Source of the DNA: an uncultured Candidatus Rokubacteria bacterium
Lineage (GTDB): Bacteria; Methylomirabilota; Methylomirabilia; Rokubacteriales; DASRDR01
Direction: 5' to 3'
Length of the DNA stretch: 64,000 nucleotides
Assembly: GCA_963826115.1 (NCBI GenBank)
Contig: CAWGVS010000004.1
Location: forward strand, 1-64,000
Position 1 is the first letter of the stretch; every line of letters begins with the position of its first letter. A program made the translations under genes and the position numbers. Below, in pieces: positions 53,691 through 63,668 of this stretch. The notes beneath the pieces are model-generated. The model had not been told where the DNA came from, made no database searches, and was given only the letters and a program-made list of their open reading frames with translations.

Positions 53691-54157
53691 CCGTGCCCTC
53701 CAATCGACAGCGAGTAGGCAGACGGTAGGCGGTGTGCCCGGGCGCGTCAAGGGGTTTCGAACTCGACAGCTGAACGAAGGGTAGCGAACGCGACGAGGAG
53801 ACGCAGAGTATGGGCGGCCAACCCGTCACGCCAGCCGTTTGCTGGCGTATCACGGCCGGCTTGCCCCGCGCACCCGCAGGCGATCGGCGATCGCCGCGCC
53901 CGCACTAAGACGGTGACCGGGTGCCCGGCTCCTCCACCGCGTGTCCGCGATCGAGATCCTCGTCCGGCCCGCGCCGGTCGTGGGCGCGGTGACCGAGCCT
54001 CATGCGGTGCGGCGACTCCTCGCGGCGCCGGGCTGGCGTCCGAGCTGCCGCCGGGACCGCCAGCCTGGGCGGTTCGCTGATTTCGTGGCCACCGACGGTT
54101 GCCACCACAGCTTCGGCCTGTACGCCTTGGTGGCCGAGCGGGGGACGCGTCCTCCTG

Positions 54158-55168
54158 CTAGTCGTGACTCCTTTGATAACGACGGGCACGGTACTCATCG
54201 ACCCAGCGACGGGTGCTCCGCCACTGGCCCCGTGCATCGCGTTGAGCACGGAGGCGCCCCCGATCGGCCGCAGTGCGAAGCGCGCGGGCGCTCAGCTTGG
54301 CCTCGGCGAGGGCAGCCAAGGGCACCAGTCGGGCCGGGCCAGCCACAGAGGGCACGATAAACCGCACGAGCGTGTCGATGATGGCCCGGGCGAGGAGCTC
54401 GCCGAGCGGAGCCGGATCTCCGCCATCGGCCCGACGGAGGTTCTGCAAGTACCGCGTTCGGTCGGCCTTGCGGATGATGGCCGGCGGGTATCCGAGTCGG
54501 ATGAGGAGGAGGTTTGTCACGAGGCGTCCGGCTCGACCGTTTCCGTCTAGGAATGGGTGCACGCGCTCGAACTCTGCGTGAACGTCGGCGAGTGCCTCCG
54601 GGAACGGACCCTCGACCCGTGTCAGCTTGCAGGCGCGCTCCACCCAGGTCGACATGCGGGCCGGAACGTCCGGCCAATCCGGTGGCTGCATGCCACCCGG
54701 GAATGGTTTGATCCCGTGGCGTCGAAACGCACCGGGCCTCTCGGGCTCGGTCGCGTCAGGGTGCGGGGCCACTTCCCACACCTTTGACATGGCCAGAGTG
54801 TGGACGTGGCGCACCTCGGTCAGCGTGATCAGCTCGCCCGTGGTCCAGTCGCCAGGAGTCAGCCCCTGCCGATAGACCCACTGGGCGGCGTCCGCGTATC
54901 CCCGAACCTCGAGGTACTCCGTGAGCAGCTTGGCACCGACCGCTCGGCCCGCACCCAGAAGGGCCTCGACCTCCTTGAGCACGAGGGTGTTGCCTTCAAT
55001 GGCGGTCGAGTTGTGGGCCTCCTGGTACCAGATGTCACCCCAAATGTCCTCGGCCTCGAGAGGGGTCGGGAGGCCGCCGAGCCGCGCCTTGAGCTCCTCC
55101 ACTCCCTCTGTCAGCTGCCGGTAGATCGCCTTACGACTCGGCCGACCTCGCGGTGATTTGGCAGCCAT
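54158..55168 (-). CDS. Fic-domain protein
   Basis: HPFLDGNGRAGR catalytic motif; N-terminal STAIEGN inhibitory motif; short C-terminal HTH-like tail. Confidence 0.92.
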   Translation of the reverse strand: MAAKSPRGRPSRKAIYRQLTEGVEELKARLGGLPTPLEAEDIWGDIWYQEAHNSTAIEGNTLVLKEVEALLGAGRAVGAKLLTEYLEVRGYADAAQWVYRQGLTPGDWTTGELITLTEVRHVHTLAMSKVWEVAPHPDATEPERPGAFRRHGIKPFPGGMQPPDWPDVPARMSTWVERACKLTRVEGPFPEALADVHAEFERVHPFLDGNGRAGRLVTNLLLIRLGYPPAIIRKADRTRYLQNLRRADGGDPAPLGELLARAIIDTLVRFIVPSVAGPARLVPLAALAEAKLSARALRTAADRGRLRAQRDARGQWRSTRRWVDEYRARRYQRSHD

Positions 55169-55635
55169 ATCAGTAGGATACAAATATGTGAGTCGGATAT
55201 GCGGAATAAATTACGCCGACGCACATTCATCGAGCCAGTCCCGGCCGAATTGGCGTCGTCCCGCCCTGGGAAATTGATGCGACTCAACTCCGAGCCTCGG
55301 TCCCAAGATGGCCGCCGCCTTCCCACCGATCTCGAGCCAGGAGGCGATAGGCGATCCCCAGTTGCTAGATAGCCACCGACCTCCGGCGATTGGCAGGTCG
55401 CGTTAGCTTGCCCGCACGAAGATCTCGTATCGCTCGGCGAGCCACTCGCGATTCGGCTGGAGGCGCTCAAGGGGCTTCGGCCCCCTGCGGGACCGACCCG
55501 GCCGATCTCTCCTCTCCACCTGTTTGGCGCGACCGTCGGCGTCCGCGGCTGGCCGCCGCAAGCTTGCGATCCGGCGGGGGGGTGGGCTATCGTGGGTACC
55601 CCGTTCGCGCCACCCCGGGGCCAGGAGGACGTCCG

Positions 55636-56181
55636 ATGGGCGAGGTCAAGTTCGGCGAGTTGCGCTCGGTCGTGGAGGCGGTCCGGCAGATCGTGCTCGA
55701 CTGGGACGGGTTCGTGTCCAACGTCGAGGCCCTCGCCAAGGAGCACGACGAGTATCGGCACACGGCGGACCGCCTCGCGTGGGAGCTGGGCGAGCTCCGC
55801 GCCGCCCACGAGCGCCTCGGTCACGAGCACGACGAGGCGCGGTCGGACCTTGCCACGCTGCGGGCGAGCCAGGAGAGCCTGACGCGCGAGCACGCGCGGC
55901 TGGCCCAGGATCGCGACGAGGGGCAGCGGGCCCTCACCACGCTGCGGGCGAGCCAGGAGACCCTGGCGCGCGAGCAGGCGCGGCTGGTCCAGGACCGCGA
56001 GGAGGCGCAGCGGACGCTCGCCTCGCTGCGGGCGAGCCACGAGGGGCTGCTCCGTGATCGCGAGCGCCTCGAGCGCGAGCTCACGGACGTCCAGGAGCGG
56101 TACGAGTCGGTGATGCGCGAGCGCCACCGCGCCGGCGAGGAGCTCGAAGCGATCCTCCGCCGGTTCCGCGCGACCGCCTAG
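55636..56181 (+). CDS. Coiled-coil protein with 28-aa repeats
   Basis: AGGAGG RBS then ATG 55636; LxxLRASxE units at 84-bp spacing (55855, 55939, 56023). Confidence 0.8.
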   Translation: MGEVKFGELRSVVEAVRQIVLDWDGFVSNVEALAKEHDEYRHTADRLAWELGELRAAHERLGHEHDEARSDLATLRASQESLTREHARLAQDRDEGQRALTTLRASQETLAREQARLVQDREEAQRTLASLRASHEGLLRDRERLERELTDVQERYESVMRERHRAGEELEAILRRFRATA

Positions 56182-56206
56182 TCCCTCGCCGCGCCGGCCG
56201 CCCGCC

Positions 56207-58711
56207 TCAGCGTGGGTCGCCGGCCCCGTCGCCGAAGACCAGGTCCTCGAGCCACTCGATCCGGATGCGGTCGGGCCCCCGGAGGCTTCCGCCGTAGCTG
56301 TCGCTCACCGCCCGCCGCGTCGTCCACAGGATCACCTGCTTGCCCTGGGCCTGGAGCGTCTTCACGACCTCGTGGAAGTCGCCGTCGCCGGTCGCGATCA
56401 CGTACACGGGGATCTCGGGGTGCTCGCGCAGGACGAAGTGGATCTTCTCGCGGAGCACGTGGTCGGAGGCGTTCGCCTTGTCGCGGCCCGCGATGTCGGT
56501 GGAGAAGCGCGCGTTCCGGACGGCCTTCTGGTCGCCCTCGAAGAAGTCGCGGTCCCAGTCCGCGACCGCCCACCGCTGCCGGGGGAAGCCGTGCCGCCAC
56601 GCGGCGTCGAGGAGCCGCGAGGCGAGCTCGACGCCGGCGAGCCGGGTGCGGCCCCCCGAGGCGTGACCGTCGGGGCGCTCGTCGAGGTGGCGCGCCAGGC
56701 TCACCTTGACGTTCTCCCAGTCGAGCATCAGGGCGAGCGCGGCCCGCCGCGCGGCCGGATCGCCGGCGCGCCCTCGGCCCGGCGGCGCGTCCGGCTCCGC
56801 GGTCGCGCTCACCGACGGCTCCGCGCCGGCGTCCGGCCCGCCGGCCGTCTCGGCCGCCTCGACGAGTGGCGCGCCGAGCCGCTCCGCCCACAGGCGCGCG
56901 TCCGTCTCCGCGAAGCTCGTCTCCGTCCAGCCCTGCCGGAGGACGCGCAGCCCTTCCTCGCGGAATCCGTGCCGGAGCGCCCAGCCCAGGAGGCCGCGCA
57001 GGAGCTGGCCCTTTTTCCGCGGATCGACGTTGCGCCGGTGCTGGGTGACGCGCCAGCTGTGGAGCCGGCAGCGCCAGCTCGCCGCGAGCTCGCCCGCCTC
57101 CTCGTTCAGCGTGGCGGCGCAGTCCCAGTTCTTGAACACGCCCGCCTCGGGCCCGGCGGCCACCCGCTGGCGGAACCACTCCACCCCCGCCGTGACCAGC
57201 GAGGTCTCGATGAACTCGCGCGTCAGGTGGTCCAGCTCCTCGAAGAGGAGCCGCTCTCGGGGATCGGGAAAGACCCGGTCGGGGTCCCGGAGGATGCGGT
57301 TGATGCGGCGGAAGTGGTCGCGGAAGCGCGGCCCCGCCGCGCCGGTGCCCGCGGCCTCGGCGTCGTGGAGCGCGGCGAGGAGGTGCGCCTCGTAGTGGCG
57401 CGCCCGGAGACAGAGCGCCGCGAGCACGGCCTGGCGATCCTGCTCGATCGCCCAGAGGAGACACAGCTCGAAGGCCTCCGCCGGGTGGGCGTCCAGCTCG
57501 AGCACGGGCAGGAGGACGTCGAGGGCCTCGTCGGCGCGCGACGGCAGGCGGCGGAGCGCGCAGGCGAGGTTCCAGCGCGCGGTCCAGCCGCGGTGCTCGT
57601 GGAAGCGGTCGGAGGCGATGGCGGCCTCGAGCAGCTCGATGACGTCGTGGATGTCGGTGCCCTGGCCGAACAGCGTGAGCGCGTAGGCGTACCACTCCTT
57701 CGCGATGGTGTTCGCGCTGCGCCGGTAGTGCAGGTCGGCGAACTCGGCGAGCGCGCGCGGCTCGCGACGGAGCAGGAGCTCGCGCGCCTGGTGGAAGGCC
57801 GGGTCGGCGGCGCCGACGACCCGGAGCTCCGAGACGGGCTCGCGGTACTCCGGTTTGGCGTCCAGCCGGAGCCTGAGGTTCGCCTCGAGCTCGTCCCGCA
57901 CGTCGGCCAGCGCCTGGCCGAGCGCCTCGGCGTCGCCACGCTCCACCGCCTGGCGGATCTCGCCCCAGATGGCGGGAGGCACGAGCGCGGACAAGGGCTC
58001 GGGGCGCCGCGCGGCGCGCTGGGCGCGCTGGACCGCCGCGGGCGCGATCCGCTCGCCGATCTCGGCCCAGTCCCGGCGGATGCGCTCGAGCCGGGTCGGC
58101 ACCTCGAGCTCGAGGACGGCCTCGATGTTCGACCGGACGAGGAGGTCGCGCGCCGCCGGATCGCCATCGGCCGCGAGCCGGGCTCGCTCGAGCTCGAGCA
58201 GGATCATCTCGTCGACGGCCAGCGTCACCTGGGCCGGCACCGTGCCCCACGCCGAGCTGACGAAGGCCGTCAGGGCCTGGCGCACCGCCCGCACGTCGGC
58301 CTCGCCCTGCCGGCACCGGGCGACCTGATCGATCACGAGCGCCCGGATCGCGTTCCCGAGGGTCTGGCGCATGGGCCGGGTCGCGTGCATCAGGGGGTTC
58401 GCCCGCCGGAACAGCTCGTGGGCGGCCTGGAAGAGGCGGAGGGCTTCATCGAGCTCGCCGTCCCGGGCGGCGCGGCGCCCGAGGACGTCGAGGGCAAAGC
58501 CGAGGGTGGTGAGATCGCGGCTTCGCGACCCGTCCCGGACCTCGGCGGTGCCGGGGAGATCGCCTCTCAGGACCTCGACGGCGGCTCGGTTCTTCTCGAG
58601 ATGCTCGGCAGGCAGGTCCTGGAGGTGGACCTCGACCACGGCGACGAGCCCCGGAAGCGCCTCGACGATCTGCTCAGGGGACCAAAGAGACCATGCGACA
58701 ACCTTGTCCAT
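56207..58711 (-). CDS. Helical-repeat (TPR-like) protein with C-terminal NYN/LabA-DUF88 (PIN-like) nuclease domain
   Basis: C-terminal LDWEN, ADW, KANASD, ATGDGDF motifs; about 620-aa A/L/E/R-rich helical N-terminus. Confidence 0.8.
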   Translation of the reverse strand: MDKVVAWSLWSPEQIVEALPGLVAVVEVHLQDLPAEHLEKNRAAVEVLRGDLPGTAEVRDGSRSRDLTTLGFALDVLGRRAARDGELDEALRLFQAAHELFRRANPLMHATRPMRQTLGNAIRALVIDQVARCRQGEADVRAVRQALTAFVSSAWGTVPAQVTLAVDEMILLELERARLAADGDPAARDLLVRSNIEAVLELEVPTRLERIRRDWAEIGERIAPAAVQRAQRAARRPEPLSALVPPAIWGEIRQAVERGDAEALGQALADVRDELEANLRLRLDAKPEYREPVSELRVVGAADPAFHQARELLLRREPRALAEFADLHYRRSANTIAKEWYAYALTLFGQGTDIHDVIELLEAAIASDRFHEHRGWTARWNLACALRRLPSRADEALDVLLPVLELDAHPAEAFELCLLWAIEQDRQAVLAALCLRARHYEAHLLAALHDAEAAGTGAAGPRFRDHFRRINRILRDPDRVFPDPRERLLFEELDHLTREFIETSLVTAGVEWFRQRVAAGPEAGVFKNWDCAATLNEEAGELAASWRCRLHSWRVTQHRRNVDPRKKGQLLRGLLGWALRHGFREEGLRVLRQGWTETSFAETDARLWAERLGAPLVEAAETAGGPDAGAEPSVSATAEPDAPPGRGRAGDPAARRAALALMLDWENVKVSLARHLDERPDGHASGGRTRLAGVELASRLLDAAWRHGFPRQRWAVADWDRDFFEGDQKAVRNARFSTDIAGRDKANASDHVLREKIHFVLREHPEIPVYVIATGDGDFHEVVKTLQAQGKQVILWTTRRAVSDSYGGSLRGPDRIRIEWLEDLVFGDGAGDPR

Positions 58712-58799
58712 ACGGGATCACTCCAGCAAAGGCTCAAGAATTGACGGGGCGACCTCCCGAGGGGAGGCGGAGGGACAACCAGGGCCAGCGGCGCGGCTC

Positions 58800-59231
58800 C
58801 TAGCGGCGCCGGCGCGCCGCGCTCTTCCGACCGACCTCGACCGCGTGGGCCCGCCGGGCCGGAGCCGGCGCAGGCACGTGGCGCGTCGGGACCGATTTCC
58901 GGGCCGACGCCAGCTGGAGCCCCCGGTCCGGAGGCGGCAAGGACCCGATCGAGGGACGGTTGTCCTTCCCGGGCAGGGCCTTGCGGGCCTTGGGGTCGTG
59001 CGTGGTCGGGGTGAGGATGGTGCCGACCGGGTCCAGGAAGTGCCGCAGCGCGAAACCGCACACCTTGCAGCGCTTGTACGAGAACCGCCGATTCTGCTCA
59101 TCCAGGCGGGGACGGCCCAGCGTCTCCATGCGACCAGGACAACACTTGTTGGGCGCCGGAGGGGAGACAATGCGACGAGGATAAAGATTCTGCGCCTTTA
59201 GCTCTCGGCTGTAGACAATGATGTTCTTCAT
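58800..59231 (-). CDS. Small Zn-ribbon-like protein with basic tail
   Basis: MKNIIVYS..KCCPGRM..YKRCKVCGFALR, then low-complexity Arg/Pro tail. Confidence 0.65.
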   Translation of the reverse strand: MKNIIVYSRELKAQNLYPRRIVSPPAPNKCCPGRMETLGRPRLDEQNRRFSYKRCKVCGFALRHFLDPVGTILTPTTHDPKARKALPGKDNRPSIGSLPPPDRGLQLASARKSVPTRHVPAPAPARRAHAVEVGRKSAARRRR

Positions 59232-59314: not shown

Positions 59315-60184
59315 TCAGCCGGCCCCCTCGGGGCGGGCGAGCTCCCGGGCGCTCGGGAACCACCGGGCGAGCTCATCGAGCGGGGTGGAGCCCAGGAACG
59401 GCTCCACCAGGCGGCGGGTGTACGCCCGGCTCCCCCCGAACCGGACGTCGGCCGTGGCCAGGACCGCCCCGTCGGGTCCGAGCAGCGCGCCGCGGACCCG
59501 GGAGTAGCGGCCACGGGGATCGTCGTCCGGCTCGCCGGCGGTACGGTCCCCCACCACGAGGAGCGGGGCGAAGGGGACCGCCTCGAACAGCGTGATCCGG
59601 ACGTCCGTGGTCACCCCGCATTCGCGCTGGGCGAGCGCGCCGAGCCACCAGCCGAGCTCGTCGAGGGCGATCAGCGCGAGCGCCGGATGCGCTCCGTCCC
59701 GGGTGCGATAGGCCTCGGGCGGGTGGAGCTCCCGCCAGAGGAAGCGCTCGTTCACCCGGAAGCGGATGCCGAGACCGACCGGGTTGGCGGCGCCGCACGC
59801 GAGACAGGTCGCGGTGCCGGGCACCTCCTCGTGGACGTCGCGCTCGGCGGCCCACCGCCGGTGGAGCGGGCCGAGGTCGGGCGGGACCAGGTCCTCCCGA
59901 TGGAGCGTCGCCTCGGCGAGGGTCCGGTCACCCTGGACCAGCGCGAGCCGCGCCGTCGTCCCGGCGCTGCCGGTCCGGAGCGCGAGCTCCGTGACCGTCG
60001 GGACGCCGCGGAGCAGCTGGAGGTGGATCGCCACCGGCAGGCGGGGGAGCGTGAGCCGGTGGAAGACCGCCGCGACCGCGCCGCCGTGCGCGGTGCCGGG
60101 GAAGCCGTGGAGGTCCGCCGGGATGGTGACGCGGCCGCGCGCCGCGTCGACCGCCGCCTGACGGAGCGCCTCGTCAATGGTCAT
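59315..60184 (-). CDS. Double hotdog-fold thioesterase-like protein
   Basis: GFPGTAHGG, CLACGAANPVGL, ALDELGWW. Confidence 0.7.
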   Translation of the reverse strand: MTIDEALRQAAVDAARGRVTIPADLHGFPGTAHGGAVAAVFHRLTLPRLPVAIHLQLLRGVPTVTELALRTGSAGTTARLALVQGDRTLAEATLHREDLVPPDLGPLHRRWAAERDVHEEVPGTATCLACGAANPVGLGIRFRVNERFLWRELHPPEAYRTRDGAHPALALIALDELGWWLGALAQRECGVTTDVRITLFEAVPFAPLLVVGDRTAGEPDDDPRGRYSRVRGALLGPDGAVLATADVRFGGSRAYTRRLVEPFLGSTPLDELARWFPSARELARPEGAG

Positions 60185-60200: not shown

Positions 60201-60317
60201 TCAGGGATCCGAGCAGTCGCGCGTGTATCCGCAGTGCGGGCAGACGATCTTGCACTTGATCTCGCGCATGATCGCGCCGCAGACCCAGCAGTGGTGCACG
60301 AGCGTGTCCTGGGCCAT
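60201..60317 (-). CDS. 38-aa Zn-finger microprotein
   Basis: Not in ORF track; MAQDTLVHHCWVCGAIMREIKCKIVCPHCGYTRDCSDP with GC3-biased codons. Confidence 0.75.
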   Translation of the reverse strand: MAQDTLVHHCWVCGAIMREIKCKIVCPHCGYTRDCSDP

Positions 60318-60342
60318 GTCGAGTCGGGTTATAGTAAGCGCG

Positions 60343-60924
60343 ATGTGCCGCCCGCATCAACTTCTCGGACGGCGCGCACCGCTCGTGCTCCTCCTGGCCG
60401 GCCTCCTCGGGACCGGGTGTGCGCGCGTCTCGCTCGACACCGTGCGCGGCGACGTCGCCGCCGGCCAGGGGCACCTCATCGGCACCGTGCCCTTCATCCC
60501 GCAGGAGACCCAGCAGTGCGGGCCGGCCGCCCTCGCGATGGTGCTCCGCTACTGGGGCGCCGTCGCGGATGCCGACGAGATCGGGCGCACGCTGTACCTG
60601 CCGTCCGCCCGCGGCGTCCTCAACATCGAGCTCGAGTTCGAGGCGCGCCGGCGGGGCTTCCGCACCCAGGCGTTCGAGGGCACGCTCGACCGCGCCAAGG
60701 CCGAGCTCCGGCAGGGCCGGCCGATCATCGTCTTCCAGGACCTCGGCCGCGGGCCGGTGTCCGTGCCGCACTTCGCGGTGCTGCTCGGCTACGACGACGA
60801 CGCCGGCGTCGTCGTGCTCCACTCGGGGACCACCGCCTATCAGGTCCTGCCCTACGCCGAGTTCCAGCGGACCTGGGCCGCGCGCCGCGCCTGGTCGCTC
60901 CTGGTCACGCCGGCCGCCCTCTGA
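60343..60924 (+). CDS. C39-like cysteine peptidase lipoprotein
   Basis: GTGC lipobox-like, VPF, QCGPAALAMVL, HFAVLLGYD. Confidence 0.82.
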   Translation: MCRPHQLLGRRAPLVLLLAGLLGTGCARVSLDTVRGDVAAGQGHLIGTVPFIPQETQQCGPAALAMVLRYWGAVADADEIGRTLYLPSARGVLNIELEFEARRRGFRTQAFEGTLDRAKAELRQGRPIIVFQDLGRGPVSVPHFAVLLGYDDDAGVVVLHSGTTAYQVLPYAEFQRTWAARRAWSLLVTPAAL

Positions 60925-60950
60925 CCGGCTCCGCGTCCGCCCCGCCCGCG

Positions 60951-62123
60951 ATGTCGGCCCCCACGATCTTCACGCCCGCGTTCCTGACCGCCGCGGGCGC
61001 GAACTTCCTCTTCTTCACCGGGCTGGCGGGGTTCGTCCTCCTGCCGCTCCACCTCCGGCACCTCGGCGCGAGCGATGGCCAGCTGGGCCTGATCATGGCG
61101 TGTTACAGCGGGACGGCGATCGTCACCCAGCCGGTGGTGGGCGCCTGGGTCGACCGGGGCGGGCACCGCGCGTTCCTCGTGACCGGCGCCGTGCTCACCT
61201 CGGGCGTCGCGCTCCTGTTCGCGGCCGCGCCGGACGCGCTCGCGCTCTTCCCCGTGCTGCGCGCGCTCCAGGGCGTGGCCTTCTCGGTCTTCTTCATCGC
61301 GAACTTCACGGTCGTGGTCGACCTGGTGCCCCCCGACCGCCGGAGCGAAGCGCTCGGGATCTTCGGCATCTCCGGGCTGGTCTCGGGCGCGGTGGGCCCG
61401 GCCCTCGGCGAGCTGCTGGTGGGCGCCGTGGGCTTCCGCGGCCTGTTCCTCGCCGCCGCGGCCCTCCCGCTCCTGGCCGCCGCGATCTCCGCGCGGCTCC
61501 GGCTCCCGCCGGCGCCGCCGGCCACGCACCCGCGCGAGGGGCTCCCGGGTCTCCTGCGGGGCGTCGTGACGGCGCCCCGGCTGCCGATGGCCCTCGGCGC
61601 GGCCTTCGGGCTCGGTCAGGGCGTCATGTTCACGTTCTTCCCGACCTACGCGCTGGATCTCGGCGTGCGCTGGGTCGGGCTCTTCGCGATCGCGTACTCG
61701 GGCGCGGCGCTCACCGTGCGGGTGACGGCGAGCGGTCTGGCGGACACGCTCGGGCGCCGGGCGGTCATCATTCCCGCGATGGCGCTCCAGGCCGCGGCCA
61801 CCGGGCTCCTCGCGAGCATCGGGTGGCTCGCGCATGGGCTCGGTCTGCCGGCGGGTCCGCCCCTCGCGGTCGCCGGCTTCCTCGCCGGCGCGGCGCACGG
61901 GCTGCTCTATCCGGCGCTCACCGCGCTGGTGGTGGACCTGACGCCGCCCGTGCGGCGCGGCCGGATGGTCGGGGTCTTCATGGCCTTCATCCTGCTCGGC
62001 CAGGCCGGGGGCGCCGCGGGATTCGGCCAGCTCGCGCACGCGGTGGGCTACCCCGTGATGTACGTGATCCTCGGCGTGGTGCTCGCGGGCGCCACCGTCC
62101 TGGCGGTCCGGCTCGAACGCTGA
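60951..62123 (+). CDS. MFS transporter
   Basis: About 12 TM segments, GAWVDRGG and GLADTLGRR motifs. Confidence 0.88.
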   Translation: MSAPTIFTPAFLTAAGANFLFFTGLAGFVLLPLHLRHLGASDGQLGLIMACYSGTAIVTQPVVGAWVDRGGHRAFLVTGAVLTSGVALLFAAAPDALALFPVLRALQGVAFSVFFIANFTVVVDLVPPDRRSEALGIFGISGLVSGAVGPALGELLVGAVGFRGLFLAAAALPLLAAAISARLRLPPAPPATHPREGLPGLLRGVVTAPRLPMALGAAFGLGQGVMFTFFPTYALDLGVRWVGLFAIAYSGAALTVRVTASGLADTLGRRAVIIPAMALQAAATGLLASIGWLAHGLGLPAGPPLAVAGFLAGAAHGLLYPALTALVVDLTPPVRRGRMVGVFMAFILLGQAGGAAGFGQLAHAVGYPVMYVILGVVLAGATVLAVRLER

Positions 62124-62184
62124 GCGCCGAGGGGGGTATACTTCGGCACGGCGCCGAGGGGCGCCGGGCAAGGAGGGCGGGGCC

Positions 62185-62706
62185 ATGCGGAGAGCGCGGA
62201 CGCTGGCCATGGTGACGCTGGTGGGGCTCGGGAGCCTGGGCGCGACGGAGCCACCGAAGGCGAGCGGCCCGGGCGCGGGCCCGCAGGAAGCCGAGGTGAC
62301 CGCGGTCGTGGTCGATCCCGGCACGCGGCAGCCCCTCGTGCTCCTCCAGGGCAAGCGCGACCGGCGGCCGCTGGCCCTCGCCATCGGCCCCTTCGAGGCC
62401 AACGGCATCGCGATCGCCCTCCAGCGCGTCACGCCCCCGCGCCCGCTCACGCACGACCTGTTCCTGAACGTCCTGGGCGACCTCCGCGCGTCCCTGAAGC
62501 GCATCGTGGTGACGGATCTCCGGGACGACGTCTTCTACGCGCAGCTCCACCTGGAGGCGGCGGGGGCGCAGCTGACGATCGATGCGCGGCCGTCGGACGC
62601 CATCGCGCTCGCGCTCCGCGCGCGCGTGCCCATCCTCGTCGAGGACCGGGTCTTCGACAAGGCGAGCCGACCCCTGCCCAAGGGCGGGGACGCGCCGACC
62701 CTCTGA
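62185..62706 (+). CDS. Bifunctional nuclease / DUF151 family protein
   Basis: IGPFEANGI, PRPLTHDL, FYAQL, DARPSDAIALA. Confidence 0.9.
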   Translation: MRRARTLAMVTLVGLGSLGATEPPKASGPGAGPQEAEVTAVVVDPGTRQPLVLLQGKRDRRPLALAIGPFEANGIAIALQRVTPPRPLTHDLFLNVLGDLRASLKRIVVTDLRDDVFYAQLHLEAAGAQLTIDARPSDAIALALRARVPILVEDRVFDKASRPLPKGGDAPTL

Positions 62707-62711
62707 CCCTC

Positions 62712-63668
62712 GTGCGCGACGGGTCCGGATCGAGCCGCGCGCTACCCGACGTCGAGTGGGCCGTCCAGCGCCGCCTGGACGACCTCATCGGCAAGCTCGA
62801 GCCCAAGTTCGGGGACCTCAAGGGCCGCGTCGAGGTCATCCCGCGGCCGAGCGTGACGTTCGCGATGATCGGCGGCGCCGAGGCCGCGAAGGCGGCGATC
62901 AGCGGCCTGTCCCACGCGCTCCGCACGCCCGAGCTCTACCGCCGCTGGGGCATCACGCCGCCGCGGGGCGGCCTCCTCTACGGCCCGCCCGGGAACGGCA
63001 AGACGCTCCTCGCGAAGGCCCTGGCGACCTTGTCCGAGGCGCTCTTCTACCACCTCCGGCTCGCGACCCTCACCTCGAAGGTCGGCCTGGCGGCGTCCGA
63101 GGTGATCAAGGAGGTCTTCCAGCTCGCGGGCTCCGAAGGCAAGGGCGTCCTCTACTTCGAGGACGCCGAGGCCCTCTCGTTCGAGCACCTCCTGCCTCCC
63201 GAGCGCGCCCGGGAGGCGGCGGCGCCGCTCCTGGTCGGCATCGGCGAGCTGCTCGACGGCCTCCGCGCCTTCCCGTCGCTCCTCGTGGTCGCGTCCACGA
63301 GCCGGCCGGACGGGATCGGCTCCATCCTGATCGCCCCCGGGCGGCTCGACCACCTGATCGAGGTGCCGCTGCCCGACGGCCCCGCCTTGCGCCAGATCGT
63401 CGAGATCCAGCGGAAGCGCGCCGAGGCGCTGGCCGAGCGGCCGCTGTTCGAGGCGATCGACGCCGAGGCGCTCGTGCCGCGGCTCGCCGGGATGAGCGGC
63501 GGCGAGGTCGCCGAGGTGATCCACCGCGCGCTCGAGGAGAAGGTCCACCAGTCGGGTACGGGGTCGGAGGCCGGTCTCGTCCGGACCGAGGACCTCCTCA
63601 CCGCCGTGGACGAGTCGCGCCGCGTGCGCGACGTCGTCGTCAAGATCCGCTACGGCCAGTACCTCTGA
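62712..63668 (+). CDS. AAA+ ATPase-like protein (proteasome/Cdc48-type module, degenerate motifs)
   Basis: FAMIGG, PELYRRWGITPPRGGLLYGPPGNGKT, PGRLD. Confidence 0.85.
   Translation: MRDGSGSSRALPDVEWAVQRRLDDLIGKLEPKFGDLKGRVEVIPRPSVTFAMIGGAEAAKAAISGLSHALRTPELYRRWGITPPRGGLLYGPPGNGKTLLAKALATLSEALFYHLRLATLTSKVGLAASEVIKEVFQLAGSEGKGVLYFEDAEALSFEHLLPPERAREAAAPLLVGIGELLDGLRAFPSLLVVASTSRPDGIGSILIAPGRLDHLIEVPLPDGPALRQIVEIQRKRAEALAERPLFEAIDAEALVPRLAGMSGGEVAEVIHRALEEKVHQSGTGSEAGLVRTEDLLTAVDESRRVRDVVVKIRYGQYL

Follow-up and report, generated by a model that had tools for sequence, protein, structure and literature searches.

We analysed a window of 64,000 nt from a Candidatus Rokubacteria bacterium (assembly GCA_963826115.1, contig CAWGVS010000004.1, positions 1 to 64,000), in which the minus strand of 56207..58711 encodes an 834-residue protein that joins a long helical repeat region to an intact NYN domain. 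We found that this gene, called TPR-NYN below, behaves as a fixed, slowly evolving core gene of its Rokubacterial family and not as a mobile anti-phage system. Comparing sequences, we propose, with our confidence evenly divided, that it encodes a lineage-fixed, TPR-targeted endoribonuclease of cellular RNA metabolism. What is new in TPR-NYN is the unusual, lineage-fixed accessory module that it adds to a predicted NYN RNase.

The gene is real, as the original prediction of an 834-residue open reading frame (ORF) at this position had held. The complete coding sequence opens with ATG, ends on a stop codon at 56207-56209 and is backed by the ORF list, its translation and its orthologues. A sliding frame plot shows a single unbroken minus-strand coding signal from about 56150 to 58550; the G+C content at third codon positions (GC3) is 0.95, similar to that of the neighbouring genes, and the base composition is native to the genome. 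The plus-strand frame across the same interval is not the gene. A GGAG Shine-Dalgarno-like motif (58721..58724, minus strand), read from the sequence, stands 9 nt 5' of the ATG, and a scan for promoters and terminators between 55900 and 60400 gave 0 sites of both kinds.

A fixed core gene of one Rokubacterial family

A word-indexed search found 134 relatives, of which the full-length proteins (about 825-855 residues, 60-96% identical) come from Rokubacteria/Methylomirabilota wherever their source is labelled. When 1.84 billion cluster representatives were scanned exhaustively with HMMER, only 106 matched at E ≤ 1e-3, and the family is therefore small. We then surveyed 200 genomes of the phylum with at least 80% completeness, all genomes compared here being of metagenome-assembled genome (MAG) grade, and obtained a match in 17 of them. 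The window's own family had TPR-NYN in 15 of 15 genomes plus the window's genome, the sister family of the same order in 0 of 127, and the remaining families gave none except f12, where 1 of 19 genomes carried a match; this proved to be a longer form, 57-61% identical. When the completeness filter was dropped, TPR-NYN was present in 21 of 21 family genomes, covering 7 of 7 genera and completeness down to 68%, a tally which, like the loss in 15 genomes described below, amounts to about one evolutionary event, the genomes being kin and not independent. The tallies of the zinc-ribbon protein and of NYN matches across families, given below, both include genomes flagged as unpublished (G027, G034), and the NYN tally also G061 and G173; the conclusions are independent of them. 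Throughout the family the gene is single-copy and without internal stops; in G196 and G200 it is divided across contig ends. In one 70% complete genus relative (G203:C10:189538-192043) the orthologue is spread over two overlapping frames that join near residue 457, as the result of a frameshift or of an error in assembly. IMG/VR viral contigs yielded no relatives, and neither did PLSDB plasmids in a tblastn search with the long form P0113 as query.

The position of the gene is conserved as well. Flanks of up to 8 kb from 14 family genomes were compared by tblastn, and the order of a thioesterase-like gene, a zinc-ribbon gene and TPR-NYN on one strand recurred in 13 of 13 loci with an upstream flank. 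The fourteenth locus falls outside this count, its contig ending 600 bp past the TPR-NYN gene.

Selection was estimated as the ratio of nonsynonymous to synonymous substitution rates (dN/dS) by the Nei-Gojobori method against 9 genus orthologues. High dS and extreme GC3 make the absolute values rough and leave the comparison among neighbours fair: TPR-NYN has 0.13-0.19 overall, 0.12-0.17 in its N-terminal region and 0.10-0.15 in the NYN domain, the lowest within the protein, next to 0.10-0.14 for the transketolase, 0.14-0.21 for the AAA ATPase, 0.20-0.31 for the thioesterase-like gene and 0.29-0.51 for the CusF-like gene nearby. Purifying selection on both TPR-NYN domains is thus as strong as on transketolase. 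Among 19 orthologues we found no hypervariable patch in the putative sensor region, the linker alone being variable.

The original prediction had taken the protein for a ligand- or phage-triggered anti-phage RNase, and had itself named conserved, syntenic, core status across the clade, with no toxicity or protection, as an outcome that would speak against it. The genomic part of that outcome is what the family displays, and presence in every family genome, synteny and strong purifying selection leave the anti-phage proposal unsupported. The same prediction recognised no named system, and this agrees with PADLOC, which returned 0 families for TPR-NYN and none for its conserved neighbours. On about 10 relatives PADLOC gave noise-level matches only (E ≥ 1.6e-4, ≤ 18.4 bits).

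A divergent NYN domain with its acidic motif set

The C-terminal residues 657-834 (56210..56743, minus strand) are predicted to form a LabA-type, PIN-like NYN nuclease domain. Pfam NYN (PF01936) matches residues 698-799 with 25.0 bits against a cut-off of 24.2, a marginal pass; the match reached 28.2 bits in a six-frame scan of the genome, and 16 of 19 scanned relatives also passed. Because the score was marginal, we built a profile from the C-terminal 185 residues of the family and ran it by hhalign against 15 canonical NYN proteins from the phylum. The two aligned over 134 columns with a probability of 98.3% (E 1.6e-14), with the motifs of the TPR-NYN family and of the canonical proteins in register: DWEN with DFEN, ADW with ADW, NASD with NSAD and GDGDF with GDSDF. 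A match of the family profile to 2qip in the PDB was weak (E 0.0047), and the NYN region alone gave only chance-level matches to PDB sequences.

All four motifs named in the original prediction were found, each on the minus strand: DWEN (residues 664-667, 56711..56722), which holds D664 and N667 and is the first acidic site; ADW (residues 717-719, 56555..56563); KANASD (residues 745-750, 56462..56479), which ends in D750; and TGDGDF (residues 774-779, 56375..56392), with D776 and D778. In an alignment of 40 relatives, extending to 20% identity, D664, E666, N667, A715-A717, W719, D750, G775, D776 and D778 are at least 90% conserved. A family-specific insert, about 15 residues long, follows the first strand of the domain. 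Given the hhalign probability and the motifs in register, the C-terminus is, by sequence, soundly assigned as a divergent NYN domain with its acidic motif set intact.

A degenerate TPR-like region and a variable linker

The N-terminal residues 1-612 (56876..58711, minus strand) appear to be made of degenerate, TPR-like helical units. No Pfam TPR model matched TPR-NYN above its cut-off, the best being TPR_12 on residues 73-104 with 16.2 against 30.1 bits. Some TPR models do exceed their cut-offs in the distant relatives P0184, P0191, P0201 and P0212, and the matches of P0201 project onto query residues 312-411 and 499-550. The former stretch takes in both motifs that the original prediction had given as examples of its roughly 620 helical, TPR-like residues, AKEWYAYAL (residues 337-345, 57677..57703, minus strand), with the invariant W340, and ARWNLACAL (residues 378-386, 57554..57580, minus strand), with the invariant N381-L382-A383; both motifs are present, and the TPR character of the query is supported only indirectly. 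Consensus-TPR chains of the PDB match positions 351-411 and 510-563 of the family profile (9gzg, E 1.1e-5), and the neighbours of the protein by protein language model (ESM) are all TPR clusters (0.95). A search for internal repeats by hhalign found none that was significant (best E 0.015) and gives no support to internal duplication, and we therefore settled on "degenerate TPR-like helical region" as a fair description of the N-terminal 610 or so residues. The region is mildly acidic (isoelectric point [pI] 6.0, net charge -10), and among the 19 orthologues conservation peaks in its core (residues 331-420 and 481-540).

Between the two domains lies an Ala/Gly/Pro-rich, low-complexity linker of 44 residues (613-656; 56744..56875, minus strand), with 13 Ala, 7 Gly and 7 Pro when counted over the 45 residues 613-657. 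It is the most variable stretch among the 19 orthologues. The original prediction had thus read the architecture correctly, from the helical, TPR-like part through the low-complexity linker to the intact NYN domain.

Kinship with longer TPR-NTPase-NYN proteins

Outside the short forms, the nearest relatives are proteins of about 1270-1490 residues. Their residues 1 to about 620 align with the N-terminal region of the query (23-55% identity over the N-terminal 610 residues), and their last 170 or so residues align with its NYN domain. Where the linker of TPR-NYN stands, with the insertion point at 637/638, these relatives hold about 650 residues that include an NTPase module, matched as ATPase_2, AAA_16 or AAA_14 (e.g. 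in P0113, P0119 and P0124) and related to the Walker-type ATPases 2qen (E 8e-6) and 2fna in the PDB. Such a match was present in 16 of 17 scanned proteins of more than 1200 residues, several above curated cut-offs. TPR-NYN itself has no P-loop NTPase module in Pfam. A split-off NTPase partner elsewhere in the genome was considered and rejected, since tblastn with 7 long forms matched only the TPR-NYN gene.

We computed two quick maximum-likelihood trees from the shared columns and dropped the linker columns and the longest branch from the second. They agree in gathering the 19 Rokubacterial short forms into a single clade (SH-aLRT 100) that is nested among the long forms, the root being inferred. 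Two further short proteins, P0115 and P0134, branch apart from the Rokubacterial ones, and remoter proteins, whose match is confined to the NYN domain, have the TPR-ATPase-NYN build too. The nested position of the short forms together with the build of these distant relatives makes loss of the NTPase in the Rokubacterial short form the likelier direction of change.

The hosts of the long forms are MAGs or isolates labelled Anaerolineae, Ktedonobacteraceae, Thermoanaerobaculia, Pyrinomonadaceae, Planctomycetota, Actinophytocola, Actinoallomurus, Amycolatopsis, Desulfatibacillum and 'Rickettsiales'. The long forms share no conserved neighbourhood (54 neighbours scanned), and matches of kinases near them to PD-T4-6 models are generic. 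At two loci (L063:7014-11867 and L053:8001-12465) the GC3 of the long form lies far below that of its neighbours, 0.32 against 0.49-0.69 in the Desulfatibacillum MAG. At L063 and L062 a small co-oriented ORF of 167-176 residues, without any family, follows the long-form gene and could be a candidate partner gene. Separately, about 40 Rubrobacter-type genomes (L064-L104) share another NYN protein, 26-30% identical to query residues 659-803, apparently a conserved NYN lineage of its own in that group.

Loss of the canonical NYN-LOTUS protein

TPR-NYN is the sole PF01936 match in its genome. The canonical protein, near-universal in the phylum, has 254 residues and combines NYN (121.8 bits) with OST-HTH (21 bits, just under the cut-off). 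Canonical NYN matches (E about 1e-34 or better) occur in 119/127, 15/16, 12/12 and 16/19 genomes of the larger families. Within the window's family, 5 of 5 genera outside g1 (the window's own) and g5 carry the canonical protein, with 96% identity between genera and 81% to the sister family; 15 of 15 genomes of the window's genus (68-99% complete) lack it, as does the one g5 genome. A sister genus holds the gene (L111:6689-7450) between a glucose/sorbosone-dehydrogenase-like and a PNP-oxidase-like gene. At the syntenic slot of the window's own genome (C5:1719363-1719593) the flanking genes are 229 bp apart, with no detectable remnant between them. On the TPR-NYN tree g5 does not group with g1, which implies two losses of the canonical NYN protein. 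The pattern of loss is suggestive of a function that overlaps with that of TPR-NYN.

Genomic neighbourhood

We called the neighbouring genes from the frame plot and searched them with the models of Pfam, NCBIfam and PADLOC. Immediately upstream of TPR-NYN, with its stop 88 nt ahead of the ATG, the minus strand encodes a small, very basic (pI 11.4) zinc-ribbon-like protein (58800..59231), composed of a 70-residue CC...CxxC domain and a basic tail. It has invariant Cys residues in its alignment, its dN/dS is 0.07-0.19 within the genus, and it matched no family in Pfam, NCBIfam or PADLOC. The same 70-residue domain, with invariant CC...CxxC, also occurs in proteins of 119-154 residues in other families of the class (L126-L131), at 1-11 copies per genome. 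Next comes a syntenic gene for a 289-residue protein (59315..60184, minus strand) with a weak hotdog/thioesterase-like match (PF13622, 18.1 bits, below the cut-off). Searches of the ESM atlas (best score 0.86) and the PDB with the zinc-ribbon and thioesterase-like proteins gave nothing usable.

On the divergent side are genes for a PA2778-type C39 peptidase, an MFS transporter, a BFN-domain protein, a CDC48/PAN-like AAA ATPase and a thioesterase. In the window the block from the C39 cysteine peptidase, of the PA2778 family, through the transporter and the BFN (bifunctional nuclease) protein to the AAA ATPase occupies 60223-63668 on the plus strand; it is kept in all 9 genus loci and partly in other genera. 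The downstream side, with a coiled-coil protein, a Fic protein, a CusF-domain protein, an MFS transporter, a transketolase and an FGGY kinase, is conserved from the coiled-coil gene to the kinase only within the genus.

The Fic gene (341 residues, 54158-55183, minus strand) stands between the CusF-like and coiled-coil genes, inside the 53750-55390 gap and within a dip in G+C content (0.63-0.71) about 1.6 kb long. It matches Pfam Fic with 52.6 bits and the PADLOC models PDC-S04 (1.4e-22) and SoFic (1.1e-19). The gene is present in 0 of 14 related loci, and within the genus the CusF-like and coiled-coil genes adjoin there. It is a strain-specific insertion, not a partner of TPR-NYN, and is possibly a defence or toxin cassette.

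A proposed cellular endoribonuclease and its alternatives

Metal-dependent ribonuclease activity has been shown for other NYN proteins (bioRxiv 10.1101/2024.04.08.588522 and the PRORP review PMC5039416), and by extension the NYN domain of TPR-NYN would be a metal-dependent endoribonuclease. The flexible linker would tether this nuclease to the 610-residue, mildly acidic TPR-like module, which would most likely dock the enzyme on a conserved cellular protein or ribonucleoprotein; docking would then select or gate the RNA substrates. As the helical module is acidic and its core is the best-conserved part, docking fits better than either direct RNA binding or recognition of fast-changing phage proteins. 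The ancestor was probably a member of the rare TPR-NTPase-NYN family, of about 1450 residues, whose NTPase switch would have been lost by internal deletion with the linker left in its place, and in the Rokubacterial family the short form has become fixed as a core gene that is inherited vertically and would serve RNA processing or turnover. The NTPase presumably gates the nuclease in the long forms, and the short form would have to be gated by partner binding or be constitutive. The comparisons establish the architecture, the conserved catalytic set, the ancestry and the core-gene behaviour; RNase activity, docking on a protein by the helical module and a cellular rather than an immune role are what we infer from them.

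Several of our results weigh against a cellular role or soften the case for it. Core-gene behaviour is compatible with a fixed immune gene and does not exclude one. The Pfam score of the NYN domain is marginal. The link to the loss of the canonical protein amounts to one robust event, in the genus, and a second on one fragmented genome (g5), and 8 of the 127 sister-family genomes, all without TPR-NYN, also gave no NYN match. The other adverse points are those that would suit a fixed, single-protein innate immune sensor, in which the TPR-like region would recognise a phage protein and free the NYN RNase, leading to abortive infection. Such a sensor would account for the architecture of a sensor-like repeat joined to a nuclease, and for an ancestry among TPR-NTPase-NYN proteins, whose distribution is patchy across five or more phyla. 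GC3 is clearly below that of the neighbours in 3 of 12 long-form loci (L052, L053, L063), and a few long forms have conflict-type neighbours: a kinase-FGE-sulfatase gene in two related MAGs (L051, L055), a kinase (L060), a CHAT protein (L059) and NsnA/GmrSD with a methyltransferase (L062). The Fic gene that matches defence models is inserted about 1 kb from TPR-NYN, in this strain only. By way of this ancestry, with its patchiness, some atypical composition and few conflict-type neighbours, the defence idea of the original prediction stays partly alive. The sensor nevertheless sits badly with single-copy presence in all family genomes, conserved synteny, a dN/dS of the putative sensor at housekeeping level and free of any hypervariable patch, the lack of a PADLOC match or of relatives on viral contigs or plasmids, and the missing NTPase switch that is typical of such sensors, and we consider it rather unlikely. 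A related scenario, which we hold to be unlikely, is that an immune-type nuclease was domesticated: it would have lost its NTPase, been fixed at the root of the family and then displaced the NYN-LOTUS RNase in the genus. A housekeeping RNase would in that case have been displaced by a former conflict-system effector.

TPR-NYN might also be one half of a two-part module with the upstream zinc-ribbon protein, which would act as an RNA-delivering adaptor or an antitoxin-like restraint. The two genes neighbour each other on the same strand in 13 of 13 family loci, and no terminator-like site separates them. A strict orthologue of the zinc-ribbon protein exists in 15 of 15 genomes of the family and in 1 of 127 of the sister family (E 8e-4), its dN/dS is low, and its charge (pI 11.4, net +22) is complementary to that of the TPR module. 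However, adjacency alone is weak evidence, the 70-residue domain is multi-copy in families of the class that lack TPR-NYN, and the zinc-ribbon gene is found in 0 of 12 long-form loci, which makes such a module quite improbable. As a candidate for a PRORP-like, protein-only RNase P, or for a different tRNA 5'-end maturase whose helical repeats would bind RNA directly, TPR-NYN shares with PRORP the build of a helical repeat domain and an NYN nuclease (PMC5039416). We rejected an RNase P role because the genome retains both a full RNase P RNA (275.9 bits) and RnpA (85 bits); moreover, the helical region is acidic and not basic, has no PPR matches and no zinc-binding connector, and the PRORP NYN signature differs from the basic NYN type according to PMC5039416, so that we regard the whole idea as highly improbable. 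A relic NYN domain without catalysis, in a protein that serves only as a scaffold, would fit the marginal Pfam score and the family-specific insertion after the first strand. This idea is barely credible in the face of metal-binding acidic residues at least 90% conserved down to 20% sequence identity, and of the domain's dN/dS, the lowest of the protein.

A TPR-targeted endoribonuclease of cellular RNA metabolism therefore remains our preferred reading, and the family has uses beyond it. Loss of the NTPase and the coincident loss of the canonical NYN-LOTUS gene offer a testable case of possible domestication and displacement. The NTPase-gated long forms, the NTPase-less core form and the genus without canonical NYN-LOTUS make a natural series in which to ask what bacterial NYN domains do and how accessory domains aim them. 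The case is also a caution for defence-gene prediction: the repeat-plus-nuclease build suggested immunity, and distribution, synteny and selection point to a cellular role.

Comparison with known systems

STAND/Avs-type anti-phage sensors combine an effector, an NTPase and a TPR sensor in one protein. TPR-NYN resembles them in carrying a repeat region and a nuclease on one polypeptide, and its long-form relatives add a STAND/Orc-Cdc6-like NTPase. It differs in lacking the NTPase, in the order repeat, (NTPase), nuclease, in matching no PADLOC/Avs model and in being core and not sporadic. The long TPR-NTPase-NYN forms, an unnamed family, share the N-terminal region and the NYN domain with TPR-NYN, which is nested among them; compared with these, TPR-NYN is without some 650 residues that include the Walker-type NTPase, and the long forms are patchy with variable neighbourhoods. 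Our literature search found no description of a bacterial TPR-NYN or TPR-NTPase-NYN family; the supplements of the Aravind group, which lay outside the search, may list such architectures.

The TPR-GreA/B-C-PIN conflict proteins (Kaur, Burroughs, Iyer, Aravind 2021, PMC8195603) likewise have TPR repeats followed by a C-terminal PIN-superfamily nuclease. No GreA/GreB match was found by Pfam in TPR-NYN or 19 relatives, although Pfam may miss divergent GreA/B-C domains. Unlike these proteins, TPR-NYN begins directly with the conserved helical region and has no variable N-terminal effector, and it evolves slowly, whereas the TPR-GreA/B-C-PIN core is described as rapidly evolving (PMC8195603). PRORP, with a PPR domain, a zinc-binding connector and NYN (PMC5039416), likewise has a helical-repeat arm and an NYN arm in one protein and serves as a model for a solenoid that positions the substrate for the NYN domain. 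TPR-NYN differs in having neither PPR repeats nor a zinc connector, in its acidic solenoid and in a genome that holds RNase P RNA and RnpA.

Another comparator is the LabA-type NYN protein with OST-HTH/LOTUS (PF01936; NYN.COG1432, Matelska et al. 2017, PMC5499597), a type counted in that paper among the most widespread bacterial nucleases still without functional studies in 2017. The nuclease domains are homologous, with the acidic motifs in register, and both proteins couple the nuclease to an accessory targeting domain. This is an N-terminal, 610-residue TPR-like solenoid in TPR-NYN and a C-terminal, 70-residue OST-HTH in the canonical protein, and the NYN scores are 25 bits and about 120 bits, respectively. 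Judged by its sequence, TPR-NYN falls outside the named defence families covered by PADLOC, lacks defining features of STAND/Avs, TPR-GreA/B-C-PIN and PRORP proteins, and belongs to the NYN domain family.

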